Origin: Escherichia phage vB_EcoD_Pubbukkers
Sequence record: NC_073068.1
Reading direction: 5' to 3' (one strand)
DNA length: 44,476 bases
How positions within the stretch are numbered: the first letter of the stretch is position 1; each line of letters starts with the position of its first letter. The notes below the pieces were generated by a model. The model saw nothing but the letters and a program-made list of their open reading frames with translations. It did not search any database and was not told the DNA's origin. Shown piece by piece: positions 5,067 to 44,422 of this stretch. Made by a program: the position numbers and the translations under genes.

Positions 5067-5080
5067 TGGCCCCTTTTGTT
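5056..5080. terminator. rho-independent terminator between convergent genes
   Basis: GGGGCC-gtgat-GGCCCC stem followed by TTTTGTT; lies between the plus spanin ORF end (5066) and the minus gene end (5079). Confidence 0.6.
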
Positions 5081-5843
5081 AGCGTGGAATACCGCAGATT
5101 TCGTTTAACGTCTTCACATCCAGCGCCACCGCCGTGGACTTAGGCTTGTCCGGGTATGGAATGAACTGTTCCACTTCAGGCCACGCCTTGATCAGCTTCT
5201 TATCGGTATTGTGCATGTTCAGAACGCCGGTAACGGTTAGCTTGAACGCGTCATACTTAGCTCGCAACTCGCGTCGGGCCTTGTCGTTACGGTCCAGGCG
5301 CTTGCAGAAATCATGATCCGCCGGAAAATCAGCGCGGCAGCGTGGCTTATAGATCGGCAGCGCTTTCCCGTCCTCGTCCAATTCGCACACAGAAGCCAGC
5401 ATAACTTCTTCGTACCCAGGCACAATATCGCCGAGATCGGGAGATAGCATATTCATGTATTTATATTCCCAGTATCCGCGATGTATTCGGTATTGTCGTC
5501 CGTCACCGCTCAATGACAGTGTGCGCACATTTCCGCCTGCGTTGATTTCGAAAGTGGCGTCATAAACGCTGCCGATACCGTTCGGGCTGTCGGCGTCATA
5601 TCTATACGTCGCCTTGTTGGTGTATACGCAGACGCCGTACATCTGCGACGGGTCATCGCCGATTGCTTCAATGCGCTCACGTAGCTCGGCGAACGAATGA
5701 ATGCCTTCCGGCATACAGTCAAGCGTAATGGCGTACGCCAGATTTCGAGAGTCCATCATGATTGATTTGGCTTCGGTCGCGATTTCGTGGTCGCGCAGGA
5801 TGTTAGCCAGAATCTGGTTTTTAATGTCTTTCGTCAGTCTCAT
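5079..5843 (-). CDS. hypothetical protein (reverse-strand moron in head module)
   Basis: 255 aa starting MRLTKDIKNQ with RBS GAGGA; the ORF-track N-terminal extension (to 6224) is low-complexity antisense of the scaffold gene and is rejected. No recognisable motif. Confidence 0.6.
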   Translation of the reverse strand: MRLTKDIKNQILANILRDHEIATEAKSIMMDSRNLAYAITLDCMPEGIHSFAELRERIEAIGDDPSQMYGVCVYTNKATYRYDADSPNGIGSVYDATFEINAGGNVRTLSLSGDGRQYRIHRGYWEYKYMNMLSPDLGDIVPGYEEVMLASVCELDEDGKALPIYKPRCRADFPADHDFCKRLDRNDKARRELRAKYDAFKLTVTGVLNMHNTDKKLIKAWPEVEQFIPYPDKPKSTAVALDVKTLNEICGIPR

Positions 5844-5991
5844 TAGTGTGTCCTCGTTGTTGGTGTGCAACCAATATATGCAACCAATACGAGGATCGCA
5901 AGCGAATTTTGCGATTATTTTTATCGCTGATAATATTAGAAGCGTGAAGTCGAGCGGGTGGCCTGCTCTGCCACAATCCCAGGGGGATAGC

Positions 5992-6696
5992 ATGAAACTT
6001 ACTAAAGCAGAATATGACGCGTTGCCGGAAGGTATGAAGGCGCTTTTTGTTGCCGATGGCGACGGGTATAAATCAACTTTCATGACCGCAGAAGAAGTAC
6101 AGGCGGAAATCAAGGGTCTGAAAGAAAACAACGCGAAGCTGGTGAGCGAGAAGAAAGCAGAAGCCGAACGCCGCGCCGAAGCTGAGCGCCTTGCGAAAGA
6201 GAAAGAGGAAGCCGCCGCGCGCAAAAATGGCGACCTCGAAGCGATCGATAAGTCCTGGAAGGATAAGTTTGCGAAACACGAAGCAGATACATCGGGAAAA
6301 ATCGAAGCCTACCGCAAGCAGATCCACGACCTAACCATCGGCAGCGCTGCCAAAGACCTGGCATCGAAGCTATTCGGTAAGAATGCGGGCATCATGCAAC
6401 GCCACGTAATGGACCGCCTGACGCTGGAAGACGGCGAAGATGGCAGCTTGAAAGTGCGTGTCTTGCAGGATGGCAAACCGTCCGCGCTGACTATGGAAGA
6501 GCTTGAAAAAGAGTTCCGTAATAACGCAGATTTTGCATCCGTCCTGGCTGGCACGCCAGCCGGTGGCGCGCCTAGCAAACCGACGCAGGTTGTCGAAGAT
6601 GTGAAGTCGAAAATCACTATGGGCCACAGCTTCGGTATCACTGACCTTACGAAACAGGCAGGTGAAATCATCGCTAAGATGGGCGACGACGAGTAA
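5992..6696 (+). CDS. scaffolding protein (putative)
   Basis: 234 aa starting MKLTKAEYDALPEG with RBS AGGGGGA; long charged coiled-coil-like segment (AEAERRAEAERLAKEKEEAAARK); immediately upstream of the putative major capsid gene. Confidence 0.6.
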   Translation: MKLTKAEYDALPEGMKALFVADGDGYKSTFMTAEEVQAEIKGLKENNAKLVSEKKAEAERRAEAERLAKEKEEAAARKNGDLEAIDKSWKDKFAKHEADTSGKIEAYRKQIHDLTIGSAAKDLASKLFGKNAGIMQRHVMDRLTLEDGEDGSLKVRVLQDGKPSALTMEELEKEFRNNADFASVLAGTPAGGAPSKPTQVVEDVKSKITMGHSFGITDLTKQAGEIIAKMGDDE

Positions 6697-25310: not shown

Positions 25311-25531
25311 TTTAATTCCTCGATCAAATTCATACGAACAGCACGGGCGGATAACGTGTCGCACACTAGATGACAACGGGCGGTCATTACGAGCCAGCCG
25401 GTAAGATCCATCCCAAGCAATTGCTCGGGGCGGATAACGCGACGTACTTTATTCTCCCTCGGGTTGATTTGGTAGCGTTTAACAATTTCGTCCACGACGC
25501 GCAGACTGCGATCAACGACTAAGATATTCAA
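25307..25531 (-). CDS. hypothetical protein
   Basis: 74-aa ORF with TTG start per ORF track, tightly packed between flanking genes. Confidence 0.4.
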   Translation of the reverse strand: MNILVVDRSLRVVDEIVKRYQINPRENKVRRVIRPEQLLGMDLTGWLVMTARCHLVCDTLSARAVRMNLIEELK

Positions 25532-25997
25532 GGAGTTCTCCTTCGCTCATTATTTCAATTTTTGCGCTGCCGATTGGTGGCGCTTCGTCAAAGATTATCA
25601 ATTGCTGGCACTTGTTATTGCTCGGCCCGACTTCGCCGGTGACGGCGTGAATGAATCTAATCCGCCAGTCCAGAAGAATTATCAGGTTTGCAGTCTTCCG
25701 GGCCAACTTCGCCCACTTCGTCGACGTGTCCTGATTCAGTAGCATGACAGTCCGGCGACCGTGCGCTGCGCATTCCACCCACGGCAGCGGGTCGGAATAC
25801 GGCGGATTGCACCATTTCCACCCTTTCAACTCTGCCCAGTCCACATCAAGCGCGCTGTGCTCCGCCGTGAAGTAACGCGGTAGCAGATGATTGGCGTCGC
25901 TCGCCGCCATATCGTAACGGAATCGGAACTTACGGCGCAGCGGTTTGAATAAAGCTGGCGGCGTGCGCCAGCTATCTTTTTGCTCACTCTTCTGCAT
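25512..25997 (-). CDS. DNA N6-adenine methyltransferase (phage N6A-MTase family)
   Basis: 161 aa; catalytic NPPY motif (WCNPPYSD) and the N-terminal WRTPP...LF segment typical of small phage Dam-like methylases. Confidence 0.78.
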   Translation of the reverse strand: MQKSEQKDSWRTPPALFKPLRRKFRFRYDMAASDANHLLPRYFTAEHSALDVDWAELKGWKWCNPPYSDPLPWVECAAHGRRTVMLLNQDTSTKWAKLARKTANLIILLDWRIRFIHAVTGEVGPSNNKCQQLIIFDEAPPIGSAKIEIMSEGELLEYLSR

Positions 25998-26448
25998 GAC
26001 CTGGATCTATCGCGTATAAAGGGACTTTATTGCCGGTTTTCATAACGCGCTGGACGCGCTTTGACTCCTCGGCGCTCATTGGGCGCATATCAGTGCTATA
26101 ACCACCGTTTGATGTGTGCCGCCACGCTATCAGCACCAGATCTTTCCGGTCGATCTTAGACTGGCGGCCCTTCGGTCGCACGTACGCCTCGGCCAGTTTG
26201 CAATGCTCGCGCAGACCTTCGGCAGTGATGCGGTTTAGCGCGACGGTGGTTGTGTACCCGGTGCGCTGCATAATACCCATCAACTCATACAGCAGTTCGA
26301 AGCGCTCCTCTAACTCCTTGCGCATCTTTTCCTCGCCTTCATAGCTCGCCAGGTAGGTATCCGCCAGCGCGTTCGCCCGTTCGACCTGTTCGCGGGCTTC
26401 GAGGCATTGCGCGGCCCAGTAATTTTTCTCTTCTTGTAAAATTTTCAT
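25984..26448 (-). CDS. hypothetical protein
   Basis: 154 aa; charged, helical-looking N-terminus; no motif recognised. Confidence 0.5.
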   Translation of the reverse strand: MKILQEEKNYWAAQCLEAREQVERANALADTYLASYEGEEKMRKELEERFELLYELMGIMQRTGYTTTVALNRITAEGLREHCKLAEAYVRPKGRQSKIDRKDLVLIAWRHTSNGGYSTDMRPMSAEESKRVQRVMKTGNKVPLYAIDPGHAEE

Positions 26449-26691
26449 TTATTTAATCTCCGTAGTGCGGATTTCCTTGCGAGGAATAAATTTGCCGTCT
26501 TTCTCGACCCAGCAAGTTCCGTAACGCCATTGGGTATTACGGCCTGTTTGCTCGGCATATACGGTCTTGCATTCGTAGCGTTCCGAGTAGTAAATAGCCG
26601 CGGTAGGTACGAAAATACAAACGGCAAACATGAGGGTGAGTATCACCCAAAATCGAAGGTCGCCGTCGTAGTCGAAAAATAATGATCTCAT
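26449..26691 (-). CDS. small membrane protein
   Basis: 80 aa with one hydrophobic helix (FWVILTLMFAVCIFVPTAAIYY); ATG at 26691 downstream of a promoter-like motif pair. Confidence 0.45.
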   Translation of the reverse strand: MRSLFFDYDGDLRFWVILTLMFAVCIFVPTAAIYYSERYECKTVYAEQTGRNTQWRYGTCWVEKDGKFIPRKEIRTTEIK

Positions 26692-26705
26692 TGTGTCGTC
26701 TCCGG

Positions 26706-26736
26706 GTATTAAAAAGGGCGTCCAAACCGGACACCC
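26706..26736 (-). terminator. rho-independent terminator on minus strand
   Basis: On the minus strand GGGUGUCC-gguuu-GGACGCCC followed by UUUUUAAU; immediately downstream of the motif pair at 26746-26772. Confidence 0.5.
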
Positions 26737-26772
26737 TCAATATAATGCAACCAATACGGTTACGCAACCAAT

Positions 26773-27096
26773 TTACGAATAAAAATTTGGGTCGCGCGCA
26801 ACGTCTACCAGATACAGGTTACTAATGCGGTTGCCGTAGTGCCCTGGAGTGCGCTGGCGGCACACAACGGCGAAGCCTGGAGGGATTGTATTGCCCGTCG
26901 CAATAATCCACGCCACGCGTGCGCCAGACAGCGTCTTGCCGTTGCATTCGATACGGGTTCCGCCATCGGCGGTGTTGATGTTGCCAATCTTGCATCCGGT
27001 GGACTTCAGACGGATGACTCCGGTTTTGCTGTCGTATGTGAATAGCTGGTTAGTCATTGCGACCGAAAAATCGATTGGTTCGAATGTAGCGTTCAT
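26773..27096 (-). CDS. HNH endonuclease-like protein (possibly degenerate)
   Basis: 107 aa; N-terminal LFTYDSKTGVIRLK resembles the FxYDxxTGxLxWK start of small phage HNH endonucleases; C-terminal GHYGNRISNLYLV resembles the N-R-x-x-N-L core, but the usual DHxxG His position is altered. Confidence 0.45.
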   Translation of the reverse strand: MNATFEPIDFSVAMTNQLFTYDSKTGVIRLKSTGCKIGNINTADGGTRIECNGKTLSGARVAWIIATGNTIPPGFAVVCRQRTPGHYGNRISNLYLVDVARDPNFYS

Positions 27097-27803
27097 TTTA
27101 AATTTTCCTCGTTAACCGCTATCGCGAAGCCGCGCGGAGTGAGTGAGCGGATTAATTTTGTACGAGCGGATTTACCACCGAGGCGACTATACTGTTTCGA
27201 GTACCCTTTTTCAACGAAAACAGGTTTCTTCTCTGGCATACGGAAGCCGTTGCCGGTCCATAAGCAGGTCAGCTTCGGATATGAATCGCGGGCGTTGATG
27301 TATTCCGGGAAAAGCGGGTGTACGTCATCTTCCGGCAGATATCCCCCATACTCCCACGGGTCGAATGAGTGATCCGGCTTGCGCCACTGGGTGGAAAGCA
27401 CACTGCGCGGATTCTCAATCATATATGGCACTTCGAAGAAGTCACCCAGGTAGGCGGCGATCTTCGCGGTGCGCACCGCCTTAAGCTGAAAGGCGGGGTC
27501 TTTTGCACGCTTGCGCGGGAAAGCTGGCGCTCCGCTCACTGCCAGATCCGTACACGGAGGGAACGCATAGATTATATCCGGCGTACCGAAATCGCCATTC
27601 ATCGCGCGGTCCACAAAGTCCATATCGATAAACTCATTGCGATATCGGATTCCACGACCATAAATCCGGTAGTCAAGGTATGATCCGTGATCGGCTTCGG
27701 AGTAGTTGAAGCAATAACACTTATGCCCCATCTCGGCAGCACGCTCAATCATCAAGCCGCTGCCGTCAAACAATGACCAGATTGTCATTTTCGCAATAGT
27801 CAT
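27093..27803 (-). CDS. DNA cytosine-C5 methyltransferase-like protein (short)
   Basis: 236 aa; motif I-like SLFDGSGL, motif IV-like FPPCTDLAVSG (Pro-Cys catalytic dipeptide) and motif VI-like MIENPRSV; no obvious target-recognition domain, so the substrate is uncertain. Confidence 0.5.
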   Translation of the reverse strand: MTIAKMTIWSLFDGSGLMIERAAEMGHKCYCFNYSEADHGSYLDYRIYGRGIRYRNEFIDMDFVDRAMNGDFGTPDIIYAFPPCTDLAVSGAPAFPRKRAKDPAFQLKAVRTAKIAAYLGDFFEVPYMIENPRSVLSTQWRKPDHSFDPWEYGGYLPEDDVHPLFPEYINARDSYPKLTCLWTGNGFRMPEKKPVFVEKGYSKQYSRLGGKSARTKLIRSLTPRGFAIAVNEENLK

Positions 27804-29704: not shown

Positions 29705-29983
29705 CTATGCGACCAATTCAGCAACCAATAAATCGCAGTCGGATATGTTGTCGATAACGCGAACGTCAGCACCGCGGCGGGCCATTCGCTCATGTTCACG
29801 TACCTGGTGCGGCTTCGGTTTTCCTCCGGGGCGCTTCACTTCGACGAACACTATTTTGCCGTTGATGATAATAATCAGGTCGGGCGCACCTGCGCGCCCC
29901 TCCCATGCCAGTTTTCGGCAGAATCCGCCTACCTCTTTCACCCGTCGCATCAGGTGACTTTGAATCTTGCCTTCTGGTGTCAT
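29705..29983 (-). CDS. VRR-NUC domain nuclease
   Basis: 92 aa; PD-(D/E)xK-type core DLIIIINGKIVFVEVKRPGGKPKPHQ typical of VRR-NUC; start overlaps the polymerase stop. Confidence 0.7.
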   Translation of the reverse strand: MTPEGKIQSHLMRRVKEVGGFCRKLAWEGRAGAPDLIIIINGKIVFVEVKRPGGKPKPHQVREHERMARRGADVRVIDNISDCDLLVAELVA

Positions 29984-32900
29984 TACTTCCTGTACCTGTA
30001 CATGATGTCGCCTTCAGCGGCAAGCGGGAAGCCTTTCGCCCAAATAGGCAGGTCGCACATCAGCGCGCAAAGCTCCTCGGTCGTGTAGTCGTCGGTGTCC
30101 GGAACTTCGGTGATCAATTCATCGTGCACTGACAGGACGATTTCATATCCGGCAGCTTCAACGCCAGGCATGGACCACGCGAGGATATCGCGGCACAGCG
30201 CCTGTACGATGTTTTCCGTCAGTTTGCCGCCGTAGGTGTACTGGAACCCCCACTGGCGCGTCGTCTGATTCTCGCCCTGATATTTAATGCGGGTGCTGGT
30301 GCGCTTCTTGCCGGTGTCTTCGTCAATCTCGGTCGTGACCGACAGCGCGATGCCGGGGTAACTCATGATGCGCCCCGACGGCAACTCAATTTTCAACCAC
30401 CACCCCGCGGCGTTCGGGTCGTCGCGCTCCTCGTCAAAGGTTGGGTCGTGCTTCGCCTTCGTACGGACAATCTTGAGCGCTTTTCTACCGTCCGGGCGAA
30501 CGGTAGCGCCAGCCCAGTATGCTTTGCCCGGATTGCGTATTGCACACAACACCGCGTCCTCAAGCTCGGCCCAAAAGGCTACCGTCTTCGGGTGCGCCTC
30601 TCGCCACATGCGTTTAATCGCATCACACGTAAGCCATACGTTTTTCGGCAGTATGTAAGTCGGGCGCTCGTCCTTCTTGCCCGGCTTCGGCGGTCGCTTC
30701 GCTTCGTTAATGCGGGCGTACTCATAACCCCGTTTAGCCGCTGCCCAAATGTGATTGGGGAATGTGCCCTTCATGACGTCCGCCATCGCGTAAAGGTCGA
30801 GGCCCAGGTTTTTAGCGAACTGCAAGAACGCCGCGACGCCGCCACCATAGCCCAGGCCAAGCTCGCAGTTATGCGCCACCAGAAAACCAGACTTAGACGC
30901 AATAAGGAACCGGTTTCCGTCTTCCACATCAATCAGGTCGTAAACCGGCTCGCAATAGGTTAACTTCCCGTTCCAGTTCAGCAATGCGGGTAAGGGCTTC
31001 ATCGTACTTTCGCTGAAGCTCGGGCACGCTGCGCCGGTTACGGCAGTTTTCCGAACGGCTGACAAACCGAAGGTTTCCAGGCTCATAGTTGCTGTCTGTA
31101 TCGATCCGGTCCATTTCGAAGTCTGGATTATCCCAGCCGTCCAGCGTTTGAACGTAGAGAAGAAACGACCTTTTATCTCTCTGCCATTCGTCACATACGG
31201 CAATCCCACGACCGCCGTAGTTTTTATACCCTTTGGCGCGGGGGTTTGTCGTTCGTGATATTGCCGCTGACAGCCGGTTGAGCAACCGCGTTCTGTGCGC
31301 ATCGTCTGGCATTGCGTCATCGTAGCAAAAATACTGTTTACGATACCGCTTTGTCGCTTCAATTGCGCAGAGGTTGCATTGGGATGTTTTACCCCTTCGG
31401 ACGTTGTCATACCCGACGCGTCCTGGCATCGCTCCGCAATCACATTGGGCCAGCAGTTGTCTGTGCCCCTGTCGTTTTGGTAATTCGCGCAGGATAACCA
31501 GGCGTCCATACCTCTCGCCAGGGCGCGGGCCATCGTGCACCTGTCTGAAACGAGTTGCCTTGCCTCCTTCCATGAATGCGTCAAGATTTTGTGGTCTTCT
31601 GTCATCAAGACCCCGTCCACGTCTATCACTGGTTTCCACCCCATAAGGTGCGCGCCTTTTGTACTCACCCATTTTTCGCCGTTCCATACTTTATCCGTTG
31701 ATGTTACGGCCATAATATCCTTGAACCCGCCATCGGTCAATACTTGGGTATGGCGGTGCAAGCAAGCCTTCCCTATCTGGCGTAAGTCCTTGCGGTTAGC
31801 TTTAATGTAGTCCGGGTCCAGGCCGAACATCTTACCGGCAGTCTCACAATAGATATCACGACCGGCCTTAAACACCATTAGCGCGGTTTTCTCGCCAGCG
31901 ATCCAGGCAAGTCCACGCCCTTCCACGTTGGAGTAGTCCGCTACGACAAACTTCTTGCCCTTAGCCGGGATAATGCACCCGCGAACGGTCGAGGCTGTTA
32001 GCTTCGATATGTCGTACGCCCAGTGTGCGGTCCCGCGTAGCAGGGAATTGATGCCGTTGGTGAGCATGTGCGACCGGACCCAAAAAGCAACGTCGCTCTC
32101 GCCTTCGCGGCGCTTAATCTTCCCTTCGTGATCGTCGCTATACTCGCCGCGTGCCAGGTTTTGAGGCTGGAAGCCTTTACCGGCCCAGCGTAGCGTGCGC
32201 TTTGCCCCTCCATACTGAAGACAACCTCGGCGGCGACCGTCGGCGGATAGGCCATTAACGAGCGGATTGTACTTAGTCGACGCCGTGGATGACGCACCGA
32301 GGCGCATCTCGATAAGCACTTTGCCCTCGTCGGGGAAGTCTGGATCTTCCAGCAGGTCGTTAAGCGTGGATTTCTGCGCATTGTGGATTGTGAACGCAGG
32401 CGCGAGGTCGCGCAGCGCTGGCAGGAAGTCATTGCCGGTCAGCTTACCGCCGAAGCGCTCCCAGGCTTCTTCCTTCAATTCTTCCTTATGCGCCTGCACC
32501 GCTTTGATCGCGGCGTTCGCCAGGTCAACGTCCACATAGAAGCCGCGGTCATTGATCAACTGGTCGATAAGCAGGATTTCATCTTCCTTCGGGGTATTAC
32601 CCCAGTCCGGTATGCGCCAGTAGACCTCCCGCATCGCGATAATATCCAGCGCGGCATATCGCAGAAATTTGGCCCATTCTTCAGGGTGAGTCTCGCGAGT
32701 GTAGCGGCGGATTTTGTAAGTCTTAGGGGTAGGCTTGCAGAATCGTTTAATCAGCGCCTTGCCTGCCTTATCCTTCGCGTGCTCTGCGTCAACGCCCAGC
32801 ACCTGACACTGCATATCGAGGCTGCCCGGCAGCGCGTGCCGAAAGGCCATAATCATGGTATCTTCGATCTGGCTTACCGGCAGGTCGATTCCCCACTTTT

Positions 32901-33171
32901 CACGGATAACCAGGCGGTCAAACAGGAGGCCGTTAGCCATCACGATTTTTGCTTTCTTGCGGGATACCTGACGGAGCGCCTTGCGCAGTTCACGCGGCAT
33001 TGTTGGTGATTCAGTGGCATCCCATGTCTGCACGCGGCCTTCGTCGATGGCGTAGGTGCAAATCATGATCTCGGTGGTTGGGTGCTCTGCGTAGGCGTAC
33101 GCCCCTACTTTCTTCAGGTCCACCCCGCTAAATGTCTCGGTATCGAGAAACAGGCGTTCAAAGTTTTTCAT
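29983..33171 (-). CDS. DNA polymerase I family (3'-5' exonuclease plus polymerase) interrupted by an intein
   Basis: 1062 aa; Exo I FLDTETFS; motif A VADYSNVEGRGLAW; motif B split as RQIGKA | intein | CELGLGYGGG; motif C VLSVHDELITEV. Intein residues 470-768 carry block A (CLHRHTQVLTDGG), block B (ILTHSW), block F (VYDLIDVEDGNRFLIA) and block G (FLVAHN followed by +1 Cys). Confidence 0.85.
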   Translation of the reverse strand: MKNFERLFLDTETFSGVDLKKVGAYAYAEHPTTEIMICTYAIDEGRVQTWDATESPTMPRELRKALRQVSRKKAKIVMANGLLFDRLVIREKWGIDLPVSQIEDTMIMAFRHALPGSLDMQCQVLGVDAEHAKDKAGKALIKRFCKPTPKTYKIRRYTRETHPEEWAKFLRYAALDIIAMREVYWRIPDWGNTPKEDEILLIDQLINDRGFYVDVDLANAAIKAVQAHKEELKEEAWERFGGKLTGNDFLPALRDLAPAFTIHNAQKSTLNDLLEDPDFPDEGKVLIEMRLGASSTASTKYNPLVNGLSADGRRRGCLQYGGAKRTLRWAGKGFQPQNLARGEYSDDHEGKIKRREGESDVAFWVRSHMLTNGINSLLRGTAHWAYDISKLTASTVRGCIIPAKGKKFVVADYSNVEGRGLAWIAGEKTALMVFKAGRDIYCETAGKMFGLDPDYIKANRKDLRQIGKACLHRHTQVLTDGGFKDIMAVTSTDKVWNGEKWVSTKGAHLMGWKPVIDVDGVLMTEDHKILTHSWKEARQLVSDRCTMARALARGMDAWLSCANYQNDRGTDNCWPNVIAERCQDASGMTTSEGVKHPNATSAQLKRQSGIVNSIFATMTQCQTMRTERGCSTGCQRQYHERQTPAPKGIKTTAVVGLPYVTNGREIKGRFFSTFKRWTAGIIQTSKWTGSIQTATMSLETFGLSAVRKTAVTGAACPSFSESTMKPLPALLNWNGKLTYCEPVYDLIDVEDGNRFLIASKSGFLVAHNCELGLGYGGGVAAFLQFAKNLGLDLYAMADVMKGTFPNHIWAAAKRGYEYARINEAKRPPKPGKKDERPTYILPKNVWLTCDAIKRMWREAHPKTVAFWAELEDAVLCAIRNPGKAYWAGATVRPDGRKALKIVRTKAKHDPTFDEERDDPNAAGWWLKIELPSGRIMSYPGIALSVTTEIDEDTGKKRTSTRIKYQGENQTTRQWGFQYTYGGKLTENIVQALCRDILAWSMPGVEAAGYEIVLSVHDELITEVPDTDDYTTEELCALMCDLPIWAKGFPLAAEGDIMYRYRK
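30868..31764 (-). mobile_element. intein inserted in DNA polymerase motif B
   Basis: 299 codons between extein residues ...RQIGKA and CELGLGYG...; starts with Cys, ends with His-Asn followed by Cys; canonical Hint blocks at both ends; the central ~180 codons show no endonuclease motifs in the polymerase frame. Confidence 0.8.
30929..31687 (-). CDS. HNH homing endonuclease encoded in the -1 frame inside the polymerase intein
   Basis: 252-aa ORF offset by one nucleotide from the polymerase frame; contains GRLVILREL...CDCG...SQCNLC, KGYKNYGGRGIAVCDEW and DRIDTDSNYEPGNLRFVSRSENCRNR (HNH core). Likely true start at Met39 (31573); no strong RBS seen. Confidence 0.6.
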   Translation of the reverse strand: MERRKMGEYKRRAPYGVETSDRRGRGLDDRRPQNLDAFMEGGKATRFRQVHDGPRPGERYGRLVILRELPKRQGHRQLLAQCDCGAMPGRVGYDNVRRGKTSQCNLCAIEATKRYRKQYFCYDDAMPDDAHRTRLLNRLSAAISRTTNPRAKGYKNYGGRGIAVCDEWQRDKRSFLLYVQTLDGWDNPDFEMDRIDTDSNYEPGNLRFVSRSENCRNRRSVPELQRKYDEALTRIAELEREVNLLRAGLRPD

Positions 33172-43279: not shown

Positions 43280-44422
43280 ATGCACCCGCAAACTAAAATC
43301 ACCGACGAGCAATTGATCGCAGAATTGCAATCCGGCACTACCGCGAAAGAGATTGCGAAGAAGTACGGCCTTTCCCTACGAAATGTCTACATGCGCAAAG
43401 CCCGCCTGTCGAAGAAAGGTATTGGTCATGGTAACGATGCCGTAATCCGTAAGCGCGTTGCCGATGGCTTTGGCGTTAAGCGCGTATCCGCCCTGGTGCG
43501 CGGCAATGGTGAAGAGGTCATGTCGTGGGTTATCACTGAGCAGGACAAGGAGCGCCAGCTTGAAGCAATGCGCGCAGTGCTGGACGGCATGAACAGCGAA
43601 ATCACACCGGCAGCACCAGTTAGCGCCCCGCCAGTCCCGATCCAGGCGCTGGACTTGCTCAACCTGTACACCGTGTCTGACTTCCACCTGGGCATGTTGG
43701 CCTGGGGCGAGGAGACTGGCGAAGACTGGGATATGGCGATCGCCGAAGACCTGTTCTACCGCTGGTTTGTCGAAGCCTTCGCACGCGCCCCGGACGCAGG
43801 CACTGCCGTAATTAATATCCTCGGTGATATGGCCCACTTTGATAGCCTCGATGCTGTCACTCCGGCAAGTGGTCACATACTGGACGCCGACACCCGCTAC
43901 CAGAAACTGGTCCGATACATGATTCGCATGGTGCGCAACGTCGTCGAACTGGCGCTGCAAAAACACCACAAAGTCAAACTGCTAATCGTCCAGGGAAATC
44001 ATGACGAGTCGGGTATGATTTGGCTGGCTGAGATGTTCAATACTCTGTACGAGAACGAGCCGCGCGTCGATGTGGATACGTCCCCGGACGTCTACAAAAT
44101 GGTGCAGCACGGCAAGACCACGCTATTTTTCCACCACGGGCATAAAGCGCGCTTTGACGCTATCGAAACCGTCATGATTTCTAAATTCAGACAGGCTTTC
44201 GGGGCCAGTGAGTACAGCTACGCGCATGTCGGTCACTTGCACCACCAGAAGATTGTTGAATCCCGCAACATGATTGTTGAACAGCACCGGACCCTCGCAG
44301 CGAAAGACGCATATGCCAGCCGTGGTGGTTGGATGTCCGGTCGCAGTGCCAACGTAATCACCTATAGCGCCAACTACGGCGAAGTGGCGCGCTTAACCAT
44401 TAGCCCGGAAATGTTGAAGTAA
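43280..44422 (+). CDS. calcineurin-like metallophosphoesterase (SbcD/Mre11-like) with N-terminal HTH
   Basis: 380 aa; N-terminal HTH-like TAKEIAKKYGLSLRNVYMRK; phosphoesterase motifs DFHLG, GDMAHFD, GNHDE and HHGH; extended -10 TGgTATATT at 43246-43254 upstream. Confidence 0.65.
   Translation: MHPQTKITDEQLIAELQSGTTAKEIAKKYGLSLRNVYMRKARLSKKGIGHGNDAVIRKRVADGFGVKRVSALVRGNGEEVMSWVITEQDKERQLEAMRAVLDGMNSEITPAAPVSAPPVPIQALDLLNLYTVSDFHLGMLAWGEETGEDWDMAIAEDLFYRWFVEAFARAPDAGTAVINILGDMAHFDSLDAVTPASGHILDADTRYQKLVRYMIRMVRNVVELALQKHHKVKLLIVQGNHDESGMIWLAEMFNTLYENEPRVDVDTSPDVYKMVQHGKTTLFFHHGHKARFDAIETVMISKFRQAFGASEYSYAHVGHLHHQKIVESRNMIVEQHRTLAAKDAYASRGGWMSGRSANVITYSANYGEVARLTISPEMLK

Follow-up and report, generated by a model that had tools for sequence, protein, structure and literature searches.

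Whether a phage-borne DNA methyltransferase simply methylates the DNA of its own phage or serves a base-modification pathway is the question raised by two genes of Escherichia phage vB_EcoD_Pubbukkers (sequence record NC_073068.1). The genes lie within positions 25512–27803 of the 44,476-nucleotide stretch analysed here, referred to below as the window; one encodes a Dam-like N6-adenine DNA methyltransferase and the other a 236-residue protein with the motifs of a cytosine C5-methyltransferase, which a sequence-only reading had thought might act in a modification pathway. We read the pair, with a probability of roughly 0.85, as two orphan S-adenosylmethionine (SAM)-dependent methylases that protect the phage's own DNA, a Dam-type enzyme producing N6-methyladenine and a compact DNMT3-like enzyme producing 5-methylcytosine (5mC). 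The analysis itself establishes the reality of both genes and the family membership, fold and motif conservation of their products.

Two conserved methyltransferase genes in the replication arm

Both genes that the sequence-only reading had announced were recovered as exact open reading frames (ORFs) on the minus strand, with the motifs it had named. The first (25512–25997, minus strand) encodes the 161-residue Dam-like enzyme, a member of the PF05869 family, and a check of the translation placed its catalytic motif IV, NPPY, at residues 64–67 (25797–25808, minus strand). The protein hit Pfam's 'Dam' profile, PF05869, at 123 bits (cut-off 28.1; E=1.3e-35) over profile positions 5–151 of 169, and also phrog_111 'DNA methyltransferase' at 6.3e-55. 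It is a minimal Dam-family enzyme that probably makes N6-methyladenine, with GATC as the probable target.

The second gene (27093–27803, minus strand) encodes the 236-residue short Dcm-like C5-cytosine DNA methyltransferase, a member of the PHROG 757 family. Its translation contains motif I, FDGSG, the SAM-binding glycine loop, at residues 12–16 (27756–27770); motif IV, FPPC, whose Cys84 is the predicted catalytic residue, at residues 81–84 (27552–27563); and motif VI, ENP, in which Glu130 is predicted to protonate cytosine N3, at residues 130–132 (27408–27416), all on the minus strand. Residues F12, G14, S15 and G16 of motif I are invariant in alignment A1. In alignment A2, which comprises 68 diverse members of the short-methylase family, F81, P82, C84, E130, N131, P132, D173, Y175, K177, T179, W182, R219, P223 and G225 are at least 90% conserved, P132 being invariant. 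Residues 140–187 are highly conserved across the family.

Measured against the related phage Oekolampad, the ratio of nonsynonymous to synonymous substitution rates (dN/dS) comes to 0.02 in the Dcm-like gene and to 0.055 in the Dam-like one. Both are under strong purifying selection and are thus real genes rather than chance ORFs. They stand alone in the minus-strand replication/early gene block, which bears out their earlier description as orphan methyltransferases of the early arm. A 4-nucleotide overlap (ATGA) joins the start codon of the 236-residue gene to the stop codon of the SNF2-type helicase gene upstream, and another of the same kind joins its stop codon to the start of the downstream HNH homing-endonuclease gene; this arrangement indicates co-transcription and makes the gene part of the replication operon.

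A compact, DNMT3-like family of cytosine methyltransferases

The 236-residue protein matched phrog_757 'DNA methyltransferase' at 5.5e-84 over residues 2–234. The family is large, with more than 2,880 clusters at 90% identity and 823 representative clusters at 50% identity (E<=1e-3), mostly of 210–260 residues, and it occurs in 1,510 phage records that include Escherichia, Klebsiella, Salmonella, Vibrio and Cronobacter phages. Given this family-wide length, 236 residues are the norm and not a truncation: the protein is atypically short, as had been said of it, when set against the 472 residues of E. coli Dcm, but not within its own phage family.

Profile libraries largely pass over these proteins. 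Only 2 of 68 diverse relatives reached PF00145 at E<0.01, NCBIfam returned no match for the 236-residue protein, and phmmer and family-profile searches of Protein Data Bank (PDB) sequences gave nothing significant, with DNMT3 and HaeIII at E~1. Structure prediction produced a high-confidence model, with which Foldseek retrieved 59 PDB matches at E<=1e-3, DNMT3A/B on top; as modelled, the protein has the C5-methyltransferase fold. Alignment of the family profile with the DNMT3A catalytic domain by hhalign brought motifs I–IV together (E=1.5e-4), pairing SLFDG with SLFDG of DNMT3A and FPPCTDLAVS with GSPCNDLSIV. Against single sequences of E. coli Dcm or M.HhaI the hhalign scores were non-significant, yet motifs I, IV and VI fell in register: FDGSG lay opposite FAGIGG of Dcm, and in both enzymes the PC dipeptide faced FPPC, as it did in DNMT3A, and ENV faced ENP. 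The hhalign alignments with DNMT3A and M.HhaI are supportive only; the structure comparison and the hhalign result against DNMT3A are what inform the placement. The 236-residue protein thus belongs to the C5-methyltransferase superfamily, as a compact and divergent enzyme of DNMT3-like type that current Pfam models miss.

The compactness is concentrated in the C-terminal part. Only about 86 residues lie between ENP (130–132) and the C-terminal RSLTPRG helix (219–225) in a family of 210–260 residues, so the protein can in one sense be said to lack an obvious target-recognition domain, as had been stated. The loop at about residues 188–207 is the likeliest candidate for the counterpart of the DNMT3 target-recognition loop; it divides the family into a 'GYSxQ' and a 'DNPGW' subgroup. 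No recognisable RxR of motif VIII (QxRxR) was found in the 236-residue protein, and the strand D173-x-Y175-x-K177-x-T179 is its likely counterpart, although no confident alignment joins the two. The GN of motif X is not present in the protein.

A studied homolog forms 5-methylcytosine

The short C5 family already has an experimentally studied member. In phage K42 (KarlJaspers strain, Drexlerviridae), a 711-bp dcm gene has been identified as the trigger of retron Ec86 (2023 preprint, bioRxiv 10.1101/2023.08.16.553469). K42 phages that escape Ec86 have a disrupted dcm, and expression of K42 Dcm is toxic solely in Ec86-carrying cells (10.1101/2023.08.16.553469). Liquid chromatography–mass spectrometry detected high C5-cytosine methylation of the multicopy single-stranded DNA (msDNA) in vivo with wild-type K42 Dcm and no such methylation with the quadruple mutant C82A/E128A/K175A/K176A (10.1101/2023.08.16.553469). 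Mutation of either C of the CCTGG in the Ec86 msDNA stem abolished defence (10.1101/2023.08.16.553469). Later papers treat K42 Dcm as the established trigger of Ec86.

The KarlJaspers protein (Hanrivervirus), named 'Dcm-like C5 cytosine methyltransferase' and likewise of 236 residues, is 54% identical to the window protein over its full length (E=1e-86). Its C82, E128 and K175 correspond to C84, E130 and K177 of the window protein, and the FPPC, ENP and YxK motifs are common to both; residue correspondences with the herni ortholog agree with these. On the strength of the reports on this homolog, the window's enzyme would also be expected to form 5mC.

Proposed mechanism, target site and activity

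In the mechanism that we propose, both methylases would be produced together with the replication genes. Cys84 of FPPC would attack C6 of a flipped-out cytosine, Glu130 of ENP would protonate N3, and the methyl group of SAM would pass to C5 to give 5mC. The target of the C5 enzyme would probably be the Dcm-type CCWGG and that of the Dam-like enzyme GATC, and replicating phage DNA would be methylated faster than by host Dam and Dcm. Such self-methylation may shield the phage DNA from enzymes that cut unmethylated GATC or CCWGG sites, and sensing by retron Ec86/Eco1 would be the cost of carrying the cytosine methylase. An anti-restriction role is plausible for both enzymes.

Several observations weigh against this interpretation. 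The CCWGG assignment of K42 Dcm rests on mutation of the msDNA site and not on a methylome, and the msDNA came from dcm+ MG1655, yet the controls were low in 5mC (10.1101/2023.08.16.553469); the phage enzyme therefore does not behave just like host Dcm. In the window protein Leu178 takes the place of K176 of K42 Dcm, so that three of the four mutated residues are kept, the catalytic pair among them. The loop at about 188–207 is the most divergent region, reading GYSKQYSR in the window protein and DNPGWAK in K42 Dcm. As to protection, small siphoviruses proved comparatively sensitive to the restriction–modification systems examined in the BASEL study, Dhillonvirus, the genus of the window's phage, among them; in the same study the methyltransferase genes of Drexlerviridae bore no simple relation to restriction resistance (PMC8594841). 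At the level of family assignment, the 236-residue protein had no PF00145 match at E<0.1 in the Pfam search.

The Dam-like protein scored 86.3 bits on NCBIfam TIGR01712, under the equivalog cut-off of 97.05; this score supports family-level membership rather than equivalog status. This score and the missing PF00145 match, together with the lack of a recognisable QxRxR or GN in the C5-like protein, are what would be expected if one or both proteins had lost methylation and survived as catalytically inactive relics or as regulators that bind DNA. The catalytic cysteine, the ENP glutamate, the glycine loop and NPPY are nevertheless all intact and conserved, dN/dS stands at 0.02–0.055, and a homolog is active in vivo, which makes loss of activity highly improbable.

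A more serious alternative concerns the site. The 236-residue enzyme could be a true C5 methylase with a shorter or degenerate site other than CCWGG, conferring broader protection; we regard this as possible, if distinctly doubtful. Its fold is nearest to DNMT3A/B, which read just a dinucleotide via short loops, its putative recognition loop differs from that of K42 Dcm and splits the family as described, and host Dcm in MG1655 evidently did not match the msDNA methylation or the toxicity of the phage enzyme. Against this, defence is lost when either C of the msDNA CCTGG is mutated, and the family-wide conservation of residues 140–187 suggests one common mode of DNA contact. CCWGG accordingly remains our preferred site; because the loop diverges from that of K42 Dcm, we assign it to the window's C5 enzyme, by analogy, with only moderate confidence.

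GATC and CCWGG each occur 156 times in the window, with observed/expected ratios (O/E) of 0.78 and 0.94, respectively; both are abundant and neither is strongly avoided. Over- and under-representation of motifs in the window gave no decisive pointer to methylase specificity, and literature searches found no phage methylome data for Dhillonvirus. As a separate observation, CTAG is strongly under-represented in the whole window (19 observed versus 53.8 expected), and GGCC, GANTC and GGWCC are moderately depleted (O/E 0.65, 0.69 and 0.70, respectively).

No partners of a base-modification pathway found

A natural phage cytosine C5-carboxymethyltransferase is known, namely CmoX of Synechococcus phage S-B43 (PDB 8yf3; PMC12783734). 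Its hallmarks are an SPPC motif and an arginine (Arg350) at the position of M.HhaI Asn304 that binds the carboxylate of carboxy-SAM (Cx-SAM) (PMC12783734). CmoX co-occurs with a phage CmoA, the source of Cx-SAM, and often with the ligase CmoY (PMC12783734). Where CmoX has SPPC, the window's 236-residue protein has FPPC. No CmoA, CmoY-type ligase or TET was found among the 24 window ORFs scanned with Pfam, and no CmoA, ligase or TET-like gene in the annotated collinear genome of Oekolampad. Nor does a TET, CmoA or ligase gene adjoin the homologs in Hanrivervirus, Webervirus, Seunavirus (PVP-SE1), Guernseyvirinae (AH01) and Krischvirus (MIZ2), where the homolog sits solo among small early genes and helicases. 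Since hypermodification partners are missing both at the window and in five other lineages, two orphan self-protective methylases are the best explanation, and the suggestion of a base-modification role for the short enzyme is not supported, in view of these absences and of the formation of 5mC by the 54%-identical K42 Dcm.

The cofactor pocket offers one feature on the other side. A low-confidence hhalign extension, the only one in which LGGKS (208–212) falls on LLGRS of DNMT3A, would place Lys211 at the Asn304/Arg350 position. An Asn-to-Lys change at the Asn304-equivalent position turns M.MpeI into a carboxymethyltransferase. Lys211, however, is not conserved across the wider short-methylase family, and DNMT3A/B carry an arginine at the equivalent position, yet are plain methylases. 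Transfer of a group other than methyl, such as carboxymethyl from the Cx-SAM of E. coli CmoA to give 5-carboxymethylcytosine, or use of 5mC as the substrate for a further modification, is on these grounds, and given the 5mC made by the K42 homolog and the missing partner genes, hardly credible. We give scarcely more credence to the idea that the compact enzyme, with its apparent lysine in the cofactor pocket, might also use Cx-SAM made by E. coli CmoA, or might instead read a short DNMT3-like site. If Cx-SAM were used, some 5-carboxymethylcytosine would be present in the DNA of Dhillonvirus and T1-like phages without any CmoA of phage origin; if the site were short, methylation would be far denser than of the Dcm type.

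The window also encodes a 'nucleotide modification associated domain 5' (Nmad5) protein at 5079–5843 on the minus strand (PF18757, E=6.9e-56, full profile). Its ORF, listed as 5079–6224 from an upstream TTG, sits within the structural arm but on the other strand. In Dhillonvirus, a single K-to-E change in Nmad5 permits escape from the Tmn defence whereas deletion of the gene does not, and the gene is toxic to clone (PMC11846954). Nmad5 occurs in 266 phage records, from Dhillonvirus, Stx-converting phages and YuA/M6-like Pseudomonas phages. It was considered as a pathway partner of the short methylase and rejected, the two families (266 and 1,510 records) being found in largely different taxa and thus not coupled.

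Genome and neighbouring genes

Nucleotide relatives identify the window as the genome of an Escherichia coli phage of the genus Dhillonvirus. A 4.4-kb stretch around both methylase genes is 90–93.5% identical at the nucleotide level to many Dhillonvirus Escherichia phages, among them vB_Eco_Maverick, Sponge, Oekolampad and EK99P-1, and in 149 of the 159 matching phage records 80% or more of it is covered. The whole window (54.6% guanine plus cytosine) is collinear with the 44.9-kb genome of Oekolampad (annotated, 92% identical), which has its structural arm on the plus strand and its replication arm on the minus strand and in which no integrase is annotated; the host genome of both methylases is that of a virulent Dhillonvirus. 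GenBank relatives name the pair 'Dam-like N6-adenine methyltransferase' and 'Dcm-like C5 cytosine methyltransferase'. The pair is therefore already known; about 150 Dhillonvirus genomes carry it with the genes named. The unannotated record of phage TH11 encodes a 236-residue protein 100% identical to that of the window.

Between the two methyltransferase genes lies an HNH homing-endonuclease-like gene (26773–27096, minus strand; phrog_99, 6.9e-16). In a relative, Shigella phage 1b, the match is confined to the final 24% of the methylase and adjoins a 'putative homing endonuclease'. The 154-residue product of 25984–26448 (minus strand) matches phrog_10530, labelled 'DNA ligase', at 1.6e-96. Neither Pfam nor NCBIfam supports that label, which a relative's annotation words as 'Possible DNA ligase but no evidence', and it looks unreliable.

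Elsewhere in the window, the DNA polymerase I gene (29983–33171, minus strand) encodes a family-A polymerase of 1062 residues, compared with 763 in Oekolampad. The difference is a single in-frame insert of 299 residues at residue 470 (30868–31764, minus strand), which interrupts the conserved segment IGKAC|ELGLGYGG. The insert starts with Cys (CLHRHT...) and ends in ...VAHN followed by Cys, the classic boundary signature of an intein; a Pfam search detected neither a Hint nor an endonuclease domain within the insert. A 252-residue ORF in another frame (30929–31687) overlaps the insert and has no Pfam match. At the right end of the genome, a 380-residue protein (43280–44422, plus strand) shows weak matches to calcineurin-like metallophosphoesterases and a weak, sub-threshold N-terminal match to a helix-turn-helix.

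Comparison with known systems

The Dam-like protein finds its closest counterparts among phage enzymes. It matches the PF05869 phage Dam family nearly end to end and shares its NPPY; the Dam of Stx-converting phages, annotated as such, is 37% identical to it, and the Dam-like protein of the T1-like phage KarlJaspers 30%. The T1-like versions are longer than its 161 residues (233 in KarlJaspers).

For the C5 enzyme, the nearest solved structures are the catalytic domains of DNMT3A and DNMT3B, at only 12–16% identity. The DNMT3 domains have about 285 residues, form oligomers with DNMT3L and target CpG, so the likeness to the 236-residue phage protein is one of structural analogy within the superfamily and not of orthology. 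E. coli Dcm and the M.EcoRII-type enzymes (PF00145) have the chemistry and the I–IV–VI motif order of the phage protein, and possibly also its CCWGG target. Unlike the phage protein, E. coli Dcm carries a large target-recognition domain. A very common phage C5-methylase family, which Pfam and NCBIfam miss, is in consequence often labelled 'hypothetical'.

The system closest to that of the window is the dcm of KarlJaspers/K42, which is likewise a solo gene near a helicase, although in a different phage family. As in K42, carrying the short C5 methylase may expose a phage to retron Ec86/Eco1.

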